This document shows, piece after piece, positions 2,802-32,231 of a stretch of 32,231 nucleotides of DNA. The position numbers and the translations under genes are program-made. The DNA comes from a virus (taxonomy: Duplodnaviria; Caudoviricetes). Location: positions 1-32,231 of the IMG/VR virus record IMGVR_UViG_3300020044_004975. One strand, given 5' to 3'. The notes beneath the pieces are model-generated. The model was not told the origin of the DNA. It saw only the letters and a list, made by a program, of their open reading frames with translations, and searched no databases. How positions within the stretch are numbered: position 1 is the first letter of the stretch; every line of letters starts with the position of its first letter.

Positions 2802-2885
2802 TTATTTATTTCTTAGATTACTAATTTGTAATACAATTGCCCAAAGTGGTATAGCAATTATGAGTGAATTTATTACTTGTATCAT
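2802..2885 (-). CDS. Small membrane peptide (27 aa)
   Basis: Hand translation MIQVINSLIIAIPLWAIVLQISNLRNK; ATGA overlap with the ERF stop. Confidence 0.55.
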   Translation of the reverse strand: MIQVINSLIIAIPLWAIVLQISNLRNK

Positions 2886-3460
2886 ACCTGAGATAGTCTA
2901 AAGATTTGTACCTGAGTTAAAGCAAATTTATCTAATAAAAGTTCTTTAGTTACTTTACCTTCTTGCAAAGCAGTAATAGCTGAGTTAAATCTTTCTTCTG
3001 AGAGAGTTTCTTTTTTCTCAGTATCTCTAAGTTCATTTCCATCATTATCTACGGCCTGAAGAGATAATAAACTTTGTAATGTAGCTCTTCTAAAGTAGGT
3101 AACTCCTGCTATTTGCTTCTGAGGATCATTTAAGATAGGTAGTAGTAATTTACTCTCTACTTTCTCTCCAGTTTCAATATCAATTATCTGAGTTACTACG
3201 CATCCTTCTAGAATAGGTTGTAAGATAATTAAATTGTATTTAAGTAAGATAGGTTCGACTGCATCTAAAATAGCGTTTAAATCAGCGTATTTCGATTTAA
3301 AGAAAGGGTTATCCTTTCCTTTAGTTACTCCTTTAATCTCATGTTTTGCTTTCCATAGCTTGCAGTAAATACCGAATCCTTGCAATACTACCTTTTCTTC
3401 TAGTGCCTGAATTTCGATAAGATTCTCAGTTACTTCTGCTTGTTCTTTCTTTGTTCTCAT
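2882..3460 (-). CDS. erf: ERF-family single-strand annealing protein
   Basis: NPFFKSKYADL, G-x-x-TY-x-RR and D-x-DGN motifs. Confidence 0.85.
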   Translation of the reverse strand: MRTKKEQAEVTENLIEIQALEEKVVLQGFGIYCKLWKAKHEIKGVTKGKDNPFFKSKYADLNAILDAVEPILLKYNLIILQPILEGCVVTQIIDIETGEKVESKLLLPILNDPQKQIAGVTYFRRATLQSLLSLQAVDNDGNELRDTEKKETLSEERFNSAITALQEGKVTKELLLDKFALTQVQIFRLSQV

Positions 3461-3475
3461 TTTTTAGGTTTTAAA

Positions 3476-3884: not shown

Positions 3885-4092
3885 TTGTTATAGGTTTTAT
3901 ATTTATTCCTTTAGTCCAATATCCGTTACTTAAATCCAGTAGTACATTCGATTCTTCATCATGCACCATTTCCCAAGCTATTGTATTTACTTGTACTCCT
4001 GATAGCTTTCCTTTTGAGCATACTTCTATCTTTAGTACTCTCTCTATAGAGTTTTCCCATTTAATTTTTTCTCCTCTCCGTAGAACGCTCAT
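3877..4092 (-). CDS. Hypothetical protein (likely start MSVLRR at 4092)
   Basis: ORF track 3877..4203 trimmed to avoid a long overlap with the upstream gene. Confidence 0.6.
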   Translation of the reverse strand: MSVLRRGEKIKWENSIERVLKIEVCSKGKLSGVQVNTIAWEMVHDEESNVLLDLSNGYWTKGINIKPITNE

Positions 4093-4303
4093 AGTACAGT
4101 ACTTTAAGTTCGTGAATAGTTCGTAAATCTTCGATAGGTAGTTTAGAATAGATAGTGTATAAAGCACTACGAAAGCTAGGAGATTCTCTAGCATAACTTC
4201 CATTCTCTTTAAGTCCTCTCATTCGATAGCCTATTATATCTGCTAGGATAATTTCTCTTAATAGATTCTCTTGTTCTTCCTGTTCTTCTAAATGAAATCT
4301 CAT
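4061..4303 (-). CDS. Hypothetical protein
   Basis: ORF track; ATGA overlap with the upstream ORF. Confidence 0.65.
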   Translation of the reverse strand: MRFHLEEQEEQENLLREIILADIIGYRMRGLKENGSYARESPSFRSALYTIYSKLPIEDLRTIHELKVLYYERSTERRKN

Positions 4304-4467
4304 TTCTCAGGTTTTATAAGTTCTACTTCTTTGATTAAAGGTAGCCATAGATCAGCTCTTTTTTTAGCATCAGCTTCTGATACTGCTTCGATAATTTTGT
4401 AGGCCGTTCTCCAGGTACAATCTGAAGCTTTCGTTTTACATTTGTAAGTTACTTTATACGTTCTCAT
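4300..4467 (-). CDS. Small early protein (55 aa, MRTYKVTY...)
   Basis: Hand translation MRTYKVTYKCKTKASDCTWRTAYKIIEAVSEADAKKRADLWLPLIKEVELIKPEK; directly behind the promoter at 4477. Confidence 0.75.
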   Translation of the reverse strand: MRTYKVTYKCKTKASDCTWRTAYKIIEAVSEADAKKRADLWLPLIKEVELIKPEK

Positions 4468-4476
4468 AGTTTTAAA

Positions 4477-4519: not shown

Positions 4520-5047
4520 TCAAAAATATTTAATCTTCTCCTTATACTCTCTAATCAATTCTTTCAGCTCTTCTTTATCCCATTTCTTCGTATCGTGGCA
4601 TAAAGTTTCAAGAAAAAAATATCCATCGTTACCTATTTTGTTTATTAAACCATTTCGGTATTCTAATAAATTTCCATGTTTATGCTGGTTACAAGCTACA
4701 CATTGAGCGTGTACGTTGTCCGGATGAAACCGCACCGCAGAATGTCCTCCTGCACTCCAAAAGTGTCCAGCATCGTATTTTGAGCCTAACTTCCCACCGC
4801 AGGAAATACACGAAAGGTCTTTGTCTCGTAGCCTTACCCACTTGTTAAATACTTGTTGAGCCATTTTAAGATAGTCCGAAGTGGTTAGTAAATCTTCTTT
4901 CTGCTTCTTCTTTTTTTCCTTCTTTATCTTATCCAGGTTCTTTAGAGCTAGTTCAGTTTTAGTACATAAGTAGCAGAGCTTATCGAAGGTTCGAAATGGA
5001 GTAAAGATTTCTCCACATTTTTTACATGATTTATCGAAGTTTGTCAT
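4520..5047 (-). CDS. ninG: NinG/Rap recombination endonuclease
   Basis: CxxC N-terminus, FNKWVRLRD, CISCG, DAGHF and RFHPDNVHAQCVACN motifs. Confidence 0.9.
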   Translation of the reverse strand: MTNFDKSCKKCGEIFTPFRTFDKLCYLCTKTELALKNLDKIKKEKKKKQKEDLLTTSDYLKMAQQVFNKWVRLRDKDLSCISCGGKLGSKYDAGHFWSAGGHSAVRFHPDNVHAQCVACNQHKHGNLLEYRNGLINKIGNDGYFFLETLCHDTKKWDKEELKELIREYKEKIKYF

Positions 5048-6198
5048 AAAGGAAGGTTTTTAATAATCTTTTCTAAAACTCTTACTACTATAGAATTTCC
5101 TGCTTGCTTGTAAGCTTGTGAATCTGATACTACTGAGAAATCAAATGTATCAGGAAAGTTCATTAGCCGAAAGCATTCTCTAGGAGTTAATCTTCTTATC
5201 TTAAATCCATCAGTATATAATTGATCCGTATTCCCTCCTCCTCCTGTAGCTGTATCAATAGTATTCGCTTCTTTGTTAATATGCCTACTTACTACTTTTC
5301 CTTTATTATCTCTATTATAAGATATTATTCCTTGTAGTAAACTTAAGTTTATTGAATCTCCTTCTTCTGCTATTTCGTAACCTGATGAAGTAGCTGATTT
5401 AACTTTTAATGTATTATCAGTGGGGCAAATAGCACCATTAGCTCTTAGTGCATTAGCTATATCTTCTTCACTTTTTGGAATAAATATAAATCCTGTTCCT
5501 TTATCTTCATGATTTACATTATGATTTATAAATCCTTTAATCATTTTTTCGCTTAAAAAATACTTTTGATTTACTTCTTCTTCTAGAACATCTTTTAATC
5601 TCTTTGTTAAATGTTCTTCAGCAGGAAATCGAAAGTTATTATCCGAATCATCTCTGATTCCTATGATAAATACTCTTTCTCTATTCTGAGGAACTCCATG
5701 TTCTTTTGCATTAAGAACTTTCCAGTATAAATGATAAGGTACTGAATCCTCATAAGGAAATAAAATAGGCAGTCCATTTACTGATTTTCCTCCTAAAAGA
5801 TTTATCCATTCCTGAAAGGTTTTTCCGTTATCATCTGAGAGTAATCCTTTCACATTTTCGAATATAAAAAATCTAGGTTTGTTCTTTGCGATGAATTCGT
5901 GAGAGTTAAAAAATAGAATTCCTCTTTTATCTTCCTTTCCTAATCTCTTTCCTGCTAAACTAAAAGCCTGGCAAGGAGGAGAAGTCATATATATATCTAA
6001 ACTTTCTTTAGGAATCTCTCTATCGTATACATTGAAAGGATAGTATTTAAGTTCTCCATAGTTATGTATATAAGTTGTTCGTGCGTACTTATCCATATCG
6101 CAAGAGAATATAGTTTCATAATCAATTTTTAATCTTCTTAGTGCCTGATCGAATGCTCCTACTCCTGAAAAGTCGCTACCTACTTTAATTTTTCTCAT
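5044..6198 (-). CDS. DNA cytosine-C5 methyltransferase
   Basis: Motifs I FSGVG, IV PPCQAFS, VI ENV, VIII QNRERVF, IX RRLTPREC and X GNS. Confidence 0.95.
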   Translation of the reverse strand: MRKIKVGSDFSGVGAFDQALRRLKIDYETIFSCDMDKYARTTYIHNYGELKYYPFNVYDREIPKESLDIYMTSPPCQAFSLAGKRLGKEDKRGILFFNSHEFIAKNKPRFFIFENVKGLLSDDNGKTFQEWINLLGGKSVNGLPILFPYEDSVPYHLYWKVLNAKEHGVPQNRERVFIIGIRDDSDNNFRFPAEEHLTKRLKDVLEEEVNQKYFLSEKMIKGFINHNVNHEDKGTGFIFIPKSEEDIANALRANGAICPTDNTLKVKSATSSGYEIAEEGDSINLSLLQGIISYNRDNKGKVVSRHINKEANTIDTATGGGGNTDQLYTDGFKIRRLTPRECFRLMNFPDTFDFSVVSDSQAYKQAGNSIVVRVLEKIIKNLPL

Positions 6199-6467
6199 AA
6201 TAAATCTTTTAGTTCTTTGTTCTCTTTCTTTAATCTTAAATTCTCTTCATGTAAAGAATACATCTTTTTTATTACCTGATTATGCTCCTCTTCTAGCTTG
6301 TGAAATACTATAGTAGCTTCCATAAGTTCCTGAGTTCTTTTCTCCATAGAGCTGATTAAATCAATTCTAGTAGGATGCTTTTCTTTTATTTCATCTATAG
6401 AGTTTATTAGTACTCTCCTGAGCAGTAAAAGTTGGCTATGAGCTAGTATTAAATCTAGTTGTTTCAT
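6195..6467 (-). CDS. Hypothetical coiled-coil protein
   Basis: ORF track; heptad-like C-terminus. Confidence 0.65.
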   Translation of the reverse strand: MKQLDLILAHSQLLLLRRVLINSIDEIKEKHPTRIDLISSMEKRTQELMEATIVFHKLEEEHNQVIKKMYSLHEENLRLKKENKELKDLL

Positions 6468-8329: not shown

Positions 8330-8344
8330 GACTAAAAAATTTAT

Positions 8345-8440
8345 TTAATAAAAAACCCTACTAATTTTCGCTGCTTCCACCTAGCTACTAATCAATAGGG
8401 CATTAAATCCTTTCAGTTCTATAATGTGGAAGCGAACTTT
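8345..8440 (-). ncRNA. Structured leader RNA: two hairpins with complementary loops and a U-tract
   Basis: Hairpin 1 AGUUC/GAACU with loop GCUUCCAC. Hairpin 2 CCCUAUUGAUU/AAUUAGUAGGG containing GUGGAAGC, followed by UUUUUU. The G-U pairs work only on the minus strand. Confidence 0.65.
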
Positions 8441-8442
8441 GG

Positions 8443-8450
8443 CAAAGTTA
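8443..8450 (-). promoter_or_regulatory. Bacteroidota -7 box (TAACTTTG)
   Basis: TAnnTTTG immediately upstream of the structured leader. Confidence 0.6.
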
Positions 8451-9984: not shown

Positions 9985-9996
9985 TTTAAATAGGTT

Positions 9997-10113
9997 TTAA
10001 AGTGAGTAAAAGTAAAATACGATACCTAGTACTAGAAGACCTGCAAAAAGTCCTATTAGAGAGTTTTTCTCCTCTGAGTTTCTAGGAGTGAAATAATTGA
10101 TTAAGTTTCTCAT
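9997..10113 (-). CDS. Small membrane protein (38 aa)
   Basis: Hand translation MRNLINYFTPRNSEEKNSLIGLFAGLLVLGIVFYFYSL; one C-terminal hydrophobic helix. Confidence 0.7.
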   Translation of the reverse strand: MRNLINYFTPRNSEEKNSLIGLFAGLLVLGIVFYFYSL

Positions 10114-10268
10114 AGTTCATAGATTTCAAAGGTTACACATTCATCTGAAGTAGTAGCTAGTTTTGTTCTAGCGTACTTGTTAGCATCTATCTCATCGTAG
10201 AAGGTATCTACTTTAGAATAGATTACATTTTCTTCAGCATCTAAAAAATTGATTTTGTACGTTCTCAT
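10110..10268 (-). CDS. Small early protein (52 aa, MRTYKINF...)
   Basis: Hand translation; first gene behind the promoter at 10287. Confidence 0.75.
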   Translation of the reverse strand: MRTYKINFLDAEENVIYSKVDTFYDEIDANKYARTKLATTSDECVTFEIYEL

Positions 10269-10286
10269 AATTTATTTCGTTAAAAG

Positions 10287-26961: not shown

Positions 26962-27407
26962 ATAGACATCTCGTTAGGAAGAATAATATCTAATGTCATT
27001 GCCCATCCTGCTAGAAGGTTTTCGAATCTCTCCGTAAAAGGTTCGCAGGAAGCATTTCCCACTATCTCTAGTCTATCATTAAGCTCTCCTCTTCGAAGTA
27101 ACTCAGCTACTCTAATTAAGATAATAGAAGTAGTATTTAGTACTTCCTGCTCATTATCATTTCCTCTAAATCTATCAGTAGTTTCACTCTGCGAAATATC
27201 TACTACATCCATCGCCATAATCGTAACGTTAAATCGGAGAATATTCGATTCAGGTGACATATTATTGACAATTATATGCACTAAAGGGAAAAGAGTTTGT
27301 TTATAGTTATCTATATCATCTAGGCTTCCAGTAGTAATAGAAGTTACTAAAGGAATATCCTCAAAAGCTTCTCTTAAGGTATCAATTAAATAGGTGTATG
27401 CTTTCAT
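26955..27407 (-). CDS. Putative tail terminator protein
   Basis: FPLVHI and EPFTERFEN-x-LAGW motifs; size and context fit. Confidence 0.55.
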   Translation of the reverse strand: MKAYTYLIDTLREAFEDIPLVTSITTGSLDDIDNYKQTLFPLVHIIVNNMSPESNILRFNVTIMAMDVVDISQSETTDRFRGNDNEQEVLNTTSIILIRVAELLRRGELNDRLEIVGNASCEPFTERFENLLAGWAMTLDIILPNEMSIC

Positions 27408-27682
27408 ATTTTAGCTCTTCTTCTTATTTCGTTTACTTCTATTGTACTCTTTTCTTTCTCAAATGTTAAAAAGGTTAGTGCTTGATGAAGGGAAAGTTTA
27501 GTGACTTCATCGAATTTTGTAACATCTCCTTTTGCTGCTGCATATATTGAGCTATACCATCCCCACCGCTCTCCAAATTGAGTTCTTTCGCTATAATCTC
27601 CAACTCCTCCTGATTCATCTCCTTCATCTGCTCCTGCAAAAAGTCCATCGTACCTTCTAATAATTCGCTTCCTAAATTCCAA
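27404..27682 (-). CDS. -1 frameshift extension of the tail assembly chaperone (gpT-like)
   Basis: The ORF opens at a T9 run, lacks an ATG, and abuts the next gene with an ATGA overlap. Confidence 0.75.
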   Translation of the reverse strand: MEFRKRIIRRYDGLFAGADEGDESGGVGDYSERTQFGERWGWYSSIYAAAKGDVTKFDEVTKLSLHQALTFLTFEKEKSTIEVNEIRRRAKI

Positions 27683-28173
27683 AAAAAAACATTCGCTGAG
27701 ATTGCTACATTTAACGGCATCGCTTTCATTACTTCAGCGTAGTTTATACTTGATTCGTACTCCTCTATATCGTATCTCTCTCCTTTGGTCTTAGTAATAG
27801 GTCTGAATAATACTGCCATCGCATTGTGCATAGTTGACCAGTCGCTCATATACTTTTCAGCATCCATATATTCTCCCCATGACATAGATTCTAAGTGAGG
27901 AATAAAACCGAATTCAGTACCTGCTAGTTTAAACCTATGAATCAACGTTTGGTCATAAGCTTCAAACATCTTAGTAAACTTATCCGTTAACTCTATAACT
28001 GAATTTACTTCTAACTTTAGAACTGCTGATAAAGGAATCTTACAAAGTACGGAAATCATCTTTTTAGCAGAGATCTCTTGCTCATCATTAGGGTTACTTA
28101 TCTTCATCAGATACTGATACTGCTCTAGAGTTATCTCTGATAAATCAGTAGGGATATATAATTTCGCTTCCAT
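27475..28173 (-). CDS. Tail assembly chaperone (gpG-like)
   Basis: EITLEQY, FGFIP-x-L, GEYMD and AVLFRP motifs; contains the slippery GTT TTT TTT TGG. Confidence 0.7.
   Translation of the reverse strand: MEAKLYIPTDLSEITLEQYQYLMKISNPNDEQEISAKKMISVLCKIPLSAVLKLEVNSVIELTDKFTKMFEAYDQTLIHRFKLAGTEFGFIPHLESMSWGEYMDAEKYMSDWSTMHNAMAVLFRPITKTKGERYDIEEYESSINYAEVMKAMPLNVAISANVFFWNLGSELLEGTMDFLQEQMKEMNQEELEIIAKELNLESGGDGIAQYMQQQKEMLQNSMKSLNFPFIKH
27681..27689 (-). other. Programmed -1 ribosomal frameshift site (T9)
   Basis: T TTT TTT heptamer in the correct phase; joins the two ORFs into a ~256-aa product. Confidence 0.75.
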
Positions 28174-28182
28174 TCTATTTAA

Positions 28183-28207
28183 TAACTTTTTTTAATTAAT
28201 ATGTACT
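28183..28207 (-). promoter_or_regulatory. Putative late promoter AGTACAT-N13-AGTTA
   Basis: ACA and AGTTA at the conserved spacing; 9 nt before ATG. Confidence 0.6.
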
Positions 28208-28214
28208 ACCTTGC

Positions 28215-28222
28215 TATATTTG
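28215..28222 (+). promoter_or_regulatory. Bacteroidota -7 box (TATATTTG) facing the plus strand
   Basis: Same 8-mer as the early promoters, 5 nt upstream of the sRNA hairpin; no clear -33 TTTG seen. Confidence 0.6.
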
Positions 28223-28227
28223 TAACT

Positions 28228-28286
28228 GCTTATGTTCTCATAATAAGTTTTAGGTTTTAAGGGGATTCTTCGGAGTCCCTTTTTTT
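28228..28286 (+). ncRNA. Putative trans-acting antisense small RNA (~60 nt)
   Basis: Hairpin GCUUAU[GUUCUCAUA]AUAAGU, linker UUUAGGUUUUAA, then a terminator; complementary to early-gene start regions. Confidence 0.7.
28259..28286 (+). terminator. Plus-strand intrinsic terminator with a C(UUCG)G tetraloop
   Basis: GGGGATTC-TTCG-GAGTCCCT then a T-run; the G-U pairs, UUCG loop and U-tract all fit only the plus strand. Confidence 0.8.
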
Positions 28287-31189: not shown

Positions 31190-31197
31190 CAAATATA
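31190..31197 (-). promoter_or_regulatory. Bacteroidota -7 box (TATATTTG) for the sigma-terminase operon
   Basis: Consensus match 17 nt before the GTG start and just downstream of a terminator. Confidence 0.7.
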
Positions 31198-31449: not shown

Positions 31450-31471
31450 AGCTTAAAATGGAATACTTGTT

Positions 31472-32230
31472 CTATTCATTATTTTTTAATTTATTTGATT
31501 TGATTGACAAGTCTTTTTCGAAGTTTATTTTTGATTCTTTCAACTTTTGAAAGATTTGAAGGATTGAAAGTTCCGCAATATTGCGATCAATTTGAGGTCC
31601 GCAAACCTCGTCAATTGAGGAATTCTTGATCAAGGAAAGAATTGAATTCGCCTCTTTTTTGATTTTGAAGTCAACAAGATCGGATTTTGATTTTTCTTGC
31701 AATTGTTTTAAAACATTATTTTTCGCGAGTTCTTGAATCTTTCCCGGATCTTCAGGATTCAAATGAAATAACTTTTTCAATGAATTCAAGATCACTCTTG
31801 GAGGAATCAACGAGAAATCAAGTCGTCCGGTTGATTCAAAGATCCTCCACAAAGGAAGAATCTCTTCGATCAAGAATTCCGCTTCAATCGTTTTCTTTTT
31901 CGATTCCGAGACAAAGCCTCGAGACTCTTGAGAAAGTTCTTCTTGTGCCTTAATTAGCGACTTGAGAGCCGGAATTCTCCTTGTTTCGTAGGCCTTCAAG
32001 ATCTGACAAAGATAAAAAGAGGAAAAAGATTGAAAGTGATTGACGGGGATATCAAGTTCACCTTTGACCGCCAATCGGAAGGCGACCACGATCTCGGAAG
32101 GCGAAAATCTTCCAAGTTCCGAAATAATAAATTCAATAAGAACTGCCTTCTCGGATTCTCCGGGTATGTTTTGAGCCTTGATCCCGATAAGCGCGAAAAC
32201 ATATCGAAGAGATTTTTTGACTTCTTCTTC
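31472..32230 (-). CDS. Partial ORF from a compositionally different source, possibly replication-associated
   Basis: Frame is open to the window end (EEEVKKSLRYVFALIG...EIVVAFRLAVKGEL); TC/GA-rich and TA-poor, unlike the core. Confidence 0.55.
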   Translation of the reverse strand, partial: EEEVKKSLRYVFALIGIKAQNIPGESEKAVLIEFIISELGRFSPSEIVVAFRLAVKGELDIPVNHFQSFSSFYLCQILKAYETRRIPALKSLIKAQEELSQESRGFVSESKKKTIEAEFLIEEILPLWRIFESTGRLDFSLIPPRVILNSLKKLFHLNPEDPGKIQELAKNNVLKQLQEKSKSDLVDFKIKKEANSILSLIKNSSIDEVCGPQIDRNIAELSILQIFQKLKESKINFEKDLSIKSNKLKNNE

Positions 32231-32231
32231 G

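Follow-up and report, generated by a model that had tools for sequence, protein, structure and literature searches.

A candidate antisense RNA gene beside terL in a Bacteroidota-type phage, predicted to pair with the start codons of the phage's own early genes

Introduction

Why should a phage with nearly all of its genes on one strand carry a short, complete transcription unit facing the other way, in the gap behind its terminase gene? To our knowledge, little is known of how lytic Bacteroidota phages switch off their early genes, and an antisense RNA encoded at such a site would be one means of doing so. The locus lies in a 32,231-nt stretch of viral DNA (IMG/VR record IMGVR_UViG_3300020044_004975; hereafter the window), for which the original prediction placed an antisense RNA gene in the terL-chaperone gap and aimed it at the start codons of many early genes. 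Having followed this up by comparison with relatives, by pairing calculations with controls and by searches for known RNA families, we consider it reasonably likely that the unit is a phage gene for an approximately 60-nt trans-acting antisense RNA that represses the translation of the phage's own early genes.

The window is tailed-phage DNA with a G+C content of 34%, nearly all the genes of which are borne by the minus strand: the early and replication genes occupy ~1.8-10.3 kb, the lysis and structural genes extend up to 28.2 kb, and these are followed by terL, small genes and a sigma-like gene. Its promoters conform to the TAnnTTTG -7 element described for the Bacteroidota primary sigma factor, which has a spacing of 4-5 nt to the start site (PMC6847099). 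The closest terL proteins among annotated phages, those of the Bacteroidota-infecting Phocaeicola, Bacteroides and Nonlabens phages, are just 33-38% identical and no DNA-level match to annotated phages was found; therefore, there is no cultured relative to test. By its sequence the phage is of the Bacteroidota type.

Some further features of the window are recorded here in their own right. The coding strand of the chaperone-like gene contains a T9 run at 27681-27689, overlapped by a second-frame ORF (27404-27682), and this run is likely a programmed frameshift. On the minus strand at 8340-8450, a TAACTTTG promoter leads into a leader of ~100 nt, which contains complementary segments and closes with a terminator-like sequence; this leader precedes the replication genes, folds with a z of just -1.5 and is possibly an attenuator or a second small RNA. 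The window ends (1-1657 and 31450-32231) are unmatched in the complete relative G002, the left one bears a plus-strand ORF giving a crAss muzzle-like match, and a gene of ~80 aa expected at the ends, which by position we would guess to be ssb-like, seems cut at both junctions. Both ends are probably chimeric.

Results

Anatomy of the unit

The unit and its neighbours are arranged as follows:

27475..28173, minus strand: chaperone-like tail-module gene, an ORF assigned to a PHROG of unknown function; downstream neighbour of the unit
28181..28204, minus strand: candidate late-promoter motif of the chaperone operon, ACAWA-N12-AGTTA, which overlaps the opposite-strand sRNA promoter in its upstream part
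28215..28222, plus strand: predicted TAnnTTTG -7 element, reading TATATTTG, with the start site predicted at 28227-28228
28228..28248, plus strand: weak 5' hairpin of 6 bp with loop GUUCUCAUA, carrying the anti-start-codon seed GUUCUCAU at 28234-28241
28248..28260, plus strand: single-stranded, U-rich linker, UAGGUU with an AGGU core; the second pairing segment, complementary to A-rich AAACC leaders
28259..28286, plus strand: intrinsic terminator with a UUCG loop and a U7 tail, the U-tract overlapping the terL stop codon
28285..29427, minus strand: terL, terminase large subunit (PHROGs); upstream neighbour of the unit

The promoter box, hairpin loop, linker and C(UUCG)G-type terminator claimed for 28215-28286 (+) are thus all present in the sequence. 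The unit was also claimed to be unique and, within the window, a detector asking for TAnnTTTG and then a hairpin with a U-tract within ~100 nt indeed returns 28215-28286 alone. A -33 TTTG stands 19-20 nt upstream of the -7 box in three relatives (L004, L009 and L441); the window reads TTTT at this position. For the predicted RNA (28228-28286), the folding energy is -15.9 kcal/mol (z -3.05), the terminator contributing almost everything, versus -7.1 kcal/mol for the opposite strand; the 5' hairpin folds at -2.6 kcal/mol (z -0.8), with its loop 70-100% unpaired in fold predictions. Among eight aligned terminator sequences, two-sided changes occur at five of the ten pairs with no pair broken, and the many G-U pairs fix the functional strand. 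In these fold models, the terminator is strand-specific and operates on the plus strand.

Two other readings of the locus were rejected, namely a minus-strand coding mini-gene, the ORF of which lacks conservation, having 3, 13 or 19 codons in some relatives and being missing in others, and a terminator of terL, for which the hairpin is on the wrong strand. The ACAWA-N12-AGTTA motif is probably a late promoter, and a similar motif stands before the chaperone gene in relatives, both with and without the sRNA unit.

Conservation in relatives

Gathering relatives via terL or chaperone homology yielded 176 loci (1.69 Mb, redundant), in which the detector found 29 units, 19 of them antisense and 17 directly after terL. 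Counting the window, there are 13 distinct post-terL unit sequences, across all of which the six TAnnTTTG consensus positions are invariant. The GUUCUCA seed is found in nine of the 13 (window included), with other 5' parts in four; it remains constant in these nine although the flanks drift, and the stem register of the 5' hairpin differs among relatives. Since the unit was found at just 9 of 45 terL loci, it is accessory at the post-terL site, and the gene order is retained although most relatives have no unit. Taking these observations with its anatomy, we regard the unit as a real, conserved candidate sRNA gene.

Post-terL units with different 5' sequences occur at L018:8634-8717, L005:4942-5011, L444:3243-3312 and L027:1925-2007; we found no convincing own target for the L018 unit, and the other three records have no early regions. 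Family counts from pattern scans are to be read as 'at least' values. These scans returned mainly chance or already-known loci, with the terminator in 3 of the 119 matches listed, and a further scan gave one more L441-type record and one unrelated unit among the matches listed. Model R1 recovered L441 at E 0.001 and gave weak scores (17-28 bits) to other units and to FopS loci, its second-best outside match (L196:3618) being a plain 3' UTR. Against Bacteroidia chromosomes, it matched in 2 of 151 genomes, both apparently at gene-end terminators, and in neither of two FopS-bearing genomes.

The 3' part of the unit occurs more widely. In viral contigs, for 106 of 119 matches to TAGGTT before a terminator, the nearest 75 nt contain no promoter, and the linker may thus also serve some generic purpose. 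In the viral contigs L165-L283, where TAGGTT precedes an ordinary terminator, an anti-AUG (TTCAT) often lies just upstream, with L772:1500-1570 listed alongside, and a similar 3' end was found in a Bacteroidia chromosome. Such 3' ends are possibly 3'-derived RNAs or a protein-binding site.

Predicted targets in the phage's own genome

All eight regions of complementarity that had been claimed were found as exact matches in the sequence:

3452..3474, minus strand: leader and start of erf (ssDNA annealing protein, PF04404, gene 2882-3460), 9 nt (3452-3460) plus 13 nt (3462-3474); -23.1 kcal/mol
6192..6203, minus strand: start of the C-5 DNA methyltransferase gene (PF00145, gene 5044-6198), 12 nt; -22.0 kcal/mol
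10261..10271, minus strand: start of the 52-aa gene 10110-10268, first in the first early operon, 11 nt; -21.0 kcal/mol
4460..4475, minus strand: leader and start of the 55-aa gene 4300-4467, 9 nt (4460-4468) plus 7 nt (4469-4475); -21.0 kcal/mol
10107..10114, minus strand: start of the 38-aa gene at 10113, a weaker target, 8 nt; -17.7 kcal/mol
4309..4316, minus strand: leader of gene 4303, a weak target, 8 nt; -16.8 kcal/mol
3891..3899, minus strand: leader of gene 3884, a weak target, 9 nt; -15.9 kcal/mol
9991..10000, minus strand: leader of gene 9984, a 10-nt exact match

The energies are ViennaRNA duplex and cofold values, computed for the RNA segment 28228-28261 against 22 early and 30 late start regions. 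Because the window holds 80 exact matches of at least 8 nt to the predicted RNA, single matches of 8-10 nt are not significant alone. The complementarity signal sits in erf, the methyltransferase, 10268 and 4467; of the 'many early genes' first proposed, about four strong targets stand and the rest reduce to about three weaker ones, with 3884 and 4303 lying near the best late start (-15.1 kcal/mol). The seven strongest-pairing starts are all early. The shuffle controls bore out the distinction between early and late genes: for early starts, the mean of the best five is -21.0 kcal/mol against -13.1 (sd 1.3) for shuffles (0 of 1000 shuffles), whereas for late starts, which are not enriched, it is -14.2 kcal/mol for the real RNA and the shuffles alike (482 of 1000). 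In a genome-wide pairing scan, the four early starts take ranks 1 (erf), 4, 6 and 7, with three intragenic sites interleaved. The value of -21 kcal/mol is reached by 4 of 22 early starts in the window, against just 2 of 669 starts sampled from two Bacteroidia chromosomes. With the four main targets, cofolds from the predicted start sites come to -17 to -19 kcal/mol and cover the AUG in each, with bipartite pairing predicted for erf, 4467 and 10268; the target leaders are themselves almost unstructured (-1.7 to -2.5 kcal/mol).

On the coding strand, the start tag ATGAGAAC has five copies, at the starts of 10268, 4467 and 3460, in the unit itself and within the sigma gene. That the first gene of each early operon bears this tag is true in the window and untrue in G002, G003 and G036. 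The box preceding 4467, TATATTCG, departs from the consensus. Another TATATTTG is found at 31190-31197 (-), directly before the sigma-like gene (GTG start 31172), which is untagged. The 18-25 kb between the unit and its targets, correct for the window, reflects the point at which the contig was opened, since erf lies ~5.6 kb from the unit in the complete genome of G002.

The confinement of all five copies to one strand, and the position of the gap copy ~35 nt from the late-type motif, might suggest that ATGAGAAC serves a phage protein as a DNA operator, with the terL-gap copy regulating the late promoter. Yet in the targets the copies fall on the AUG, the gap copy is flanked by a conserved promoter of the opposite strand and a strand-specific terminator that co-varies, and the sequence varies by lineage, which makes an operator extremely unlikely in our view.

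Co-variation of the seed with the start tag

The unit had been predicted to co-vary with the early starts of its own genome, and this is seen across relatives and lineages, with exceptions. The tag ATGAGAAC opens 12 of 259 ORFs in seed carriers versus 3 of 2458 in other relatives, counts which are not independent because the seed carriers form one clade. It opens erf in every seed carrier showing that gene, including G003 and L441, the erf genes of which are 33-35% identical to that of the window; erf opens with ATGAGAAA or ATGAAAA in L014, L015, L017, L018, L019 and L524, which have 56-58% identity and lack the seed. In L448, erf is tagged and the post-terL gap falls outside the coverage of the record. 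The 4467 ortholog is tagged in five of five carriers versus none of seven others, and other genes are tagged in some carriers only, mostly via a change of Lys to Arg at codon 2.

The linker, too, differs between lineages together with the erf leader. The window erf pairs at -22.3 kcal/mol with its own RNA versus -14.8 with that of G003, and the G003 erf at -16.4 with its own versus -12.0 with that of the window. As exceptions, one G036 leader pairs better with the window RNA (-25.6) than with the G036 RNA (-18.6), and G002-type leaders pair equally with the window and G003 RNAs. A holin-like late gene is tagged with ATGAGAAC in G003 (oriented 17938) and G036 (oriented 7116); hence, the same RNA could control the timing of lysis in these two carriers.

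Units of the same design in other lineages

Elsewhere in related phages, similarly designed units precede the scaffold gene (G008, G016), lie within early regions (G028-G030) or, in G017, occupy the coding strand where the late and early genes meet. Those at G008:20172, G015:23922 and G016:5880 have a FopS-like UUUUCAUAG seed and are situated between a 58-aa gene and the scaffold gene, in a related clade whose early genes are borne by the opposite strand.

Pairing with the early starts of the own genome is stronger than for shuffles in all five genomes tested (z -3.2 to -5.8), and pairing with its late starts in one of the five. In a perfect-match test of eight units against the early starts of ten genomes, which left out the sister genomes G002, G036 and G016 as well as units without an early region, the own genome ranks first for six of the eight; at p = 0.1 this gives 2e-5, if the units are independent. 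By z, the own genome ranks fourth of ten for the G005 unit, an incomplete record, and eighth of ten for the G008 unit, for which it is first by raw score. For G028-G030, the own-genome match may reflect local ancestry because these units sit in early intergenic regions, those of G029 and G030 overlapping leaders. In G017, the seed reads UUUUUUUCAUG and the erf start ATGAAAAAAA; this A-type seed and the erf start of the same genome match over 13 nt, and the G017 ortholog of 10113 starts with ATGAAAA, likewise matching the unit of that genome. Being on the coding strand, the G017 unit cannot be cis-antisense.

These placements bear on whether the post-terL unit might be a by-product, that is, a divergent promoter with an insulating terminator which shields terL from antisense transcription, built round an inverted early-leader relic, or else a cis-antisense RNA acting on a terL-chaperone read-through transcript, for which lambda OOP would be the model. 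Such an origin would account for the coding strand resembling an early leader with a 3-codon ORF behind it, and for the leader overlap of the G029 and G030 units; further, with a weak opposite-strand terminator, a read-through RNA would be fully complementary. It is hard to square with a seed that is held in nine distinct units as the flanks drift, with the variable mini-ORF, with the gene order being kept although most relatives have no unit and with the match of the coding-strand G017 unit to its own early starts. We regard both versions as unlikely.

Another question is whose mRNAs the RNA was selected to bind. Several off-diagonal unit-genome pairings beat shuffles as well, so that units pair with the early starts of other lineages too, and the patchy distribution of the unit fits an accessory competition function. 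RNAs of the FopS and GibS type are reported to regulate host genes (PMC11697453, PMC7366714), and in the chromosomal sample 2 of 669 starts (~0.3%) pair as strongly as the main targets. The selected targets might accordingly be host mRNAs or the early mRNAs of co-infecting related phages, with own-gene pairing secondary. We think this improbable: the tag is enriched in the carriers' own genes, the own genome comes first for most of the units in the perfect-match test, and tag loss would benefit a phage aiming solely at others.

Comparison with known RNA systems

The unit resembles FopS (RF04319) in its primary-sigma promoter, 5' start-codon seed, U-rich AGGUU linker and intrinsic terminator, with a length of ~60 nt as compared to ~65-70 nt. 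FopS RNAs are described as having several targets, at the 5' ends of polycistrons, with one copy reported in a Caudovirales phage, and in vitro FopS-10 prevents translation by pairing next to the start codon (PMC11697453). The differences are several. The seed of the window unit is GUUCUCAU and that of FopS UUUUUCAU, the flanks differ and the R1/R1' seed is absent. FopS is multicopy, whereas the unit is single in the window, both by the detector and with just one model R1 match under E 1. The phage unit has a weak 5' hairpin, although it otherwise shows the promoter, single-stranded 5' part and terminator of FopS; and FopS targets are host PUL genes, whereas those predicted here are the phage's own early genes. 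The FopS covariance model scores the 116-nt stretch at 17.8 bits (E 0.73), below the gathering cut-off of 56; as a control, 9 of 10 true FopS loci score 70-82 bits with it. GibS of B. thetaiotaomicron (RF04182) is likewise trans-encoded and pairs across the start codon, with two seeds (R1 and R2) on one target (PMC7366714). It differs in having a 142-position model, as against the ~60-nt unit, and host metabolic targets, and its Rfam model gives no match to the unit up to E 10. Rfam, the library of which includes the FopS model, has no relevant match for the window or for ten loci with similar units.

The likeness in design to FopS raises the possibility that the RNA acts through a protein, serving a host RNA-binding protein, for instance RbpB, as a decoy, or that it protects or activates the tagged mRNAs. 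RbpB is reported to bind single-stranded regions of FopS and GibS and to relieve repression (PMC11697453), and the AGGUU linker is common to FopS and many 3' UTRs; but the predicted pairing covers the AUG itself and the nearly unstructured leaders leave an activator nothing to unfold, on which grounds we hold this to be very unlikely.

The original prediction drew its comparison with the P1/P7 c4 and P4 CI RNAs. These have short bipartite targets and undergo processing. As an analogy the comparison holds, in that a phage RNA would act on phage genes in trans via short complementary segments, with P1 c4 RNA being described as a trans-acting repressor of Ant synthesis (PMC8546580). It goes no further: there is no Rfam C4 match, the anatomy is that of FopS and GibS, and the unit is a stand-alone transcription unit with several start codons in three operons as predicted targets. 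Lambda OOP and P22 sar are each encoded in cis to the single overlapping gene that they target. Like the present unit, both are short antisense units which lie within a phage genome and are equipped with a promoter and a terminator of their own; in contrast to them, the present unit overlaps only the stop codon of terL and pairs best with distant partners.

Lysogenic immunity, which had been suggested as a role, found no support and is unlikely, since neither an integrase (PF00589) nor an HTH_3 repressor (PF01381) matched in any of five records, one of them with terminal repeats, in a search covering these two families. There is no antirepressor among the 52 window proteins (PHROGs), and none of 301 Bacteroidia genomes yielded a prophage relative above 39% terL identity. 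The phage is apparently non-temperate. No description of this RNA was found in the literature covered, most subscription papers being outside it, and the accessible part of a general listing of phage sRNAs contains nothing of this kind (PMC13492144). We conclude that the unit would work like FopS and GibS but belongs to neither, nor to C4.

Discussion

The reading that we favor, of an RNA repressor of the phage's own early genes, can be cast as a sequence of steps. Host RNA polymerase would transcribe the RNA, a stable one, from the onset of infection. The seed in its loop would nucleate on AUGAGAAC at the AUG, and the linker would then zip onto the A-rich leader upstream, such that pairing over the start codon and leader of the erf, methyltransferase, 10268 and 4467 mRNAs would likely block ribosome loading. 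Bacteroidota lack Shine-Dalgarno pairing and the leader carries the initiation signals; therefore, the leader and start codon are a natural place to block the ribosome. Upstream adenines are reported to tune initiation in Flavobacterium (PMC6847099), and hence pairing over an A-rich leader would be expected to hinder loading. As the RNA accumulates, it would damp early translation as a delayed negative feedback, which would help to bring the early phase to a close in a phage that has no recognised repressor, and the overlapping late-type promoter on the opposite strand may couple its synthesis to the early-late switch.

More tentatively, and as less likely than not, we posit a wider principle: Bacteroidota phages, some of them without a protein repressor, may run their early programme by an RNA repressor addressed via the first codons and leaders of genes. 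A change of Lys to Arg at codon 2 would then move genes into or out of the regulon, and each lineage would have a pair of RNA and tag of its own, with the silencing of related phages that enter the cell as a further possible effect.

Cast as a 60-nt RNA matched to a tag peculiar to the lineage, the hypothesis is a precise one and is testable with the existing GFP reporters described for Flavobacterium (PMC6847099). If it is true, the design seen in FopS and GibS would extend from host metabolism to viral self-regulation, the converging second codons of unrelated early genes would be accounted for, and a compact, programmable silencer would become available for use in Bacteroidota.
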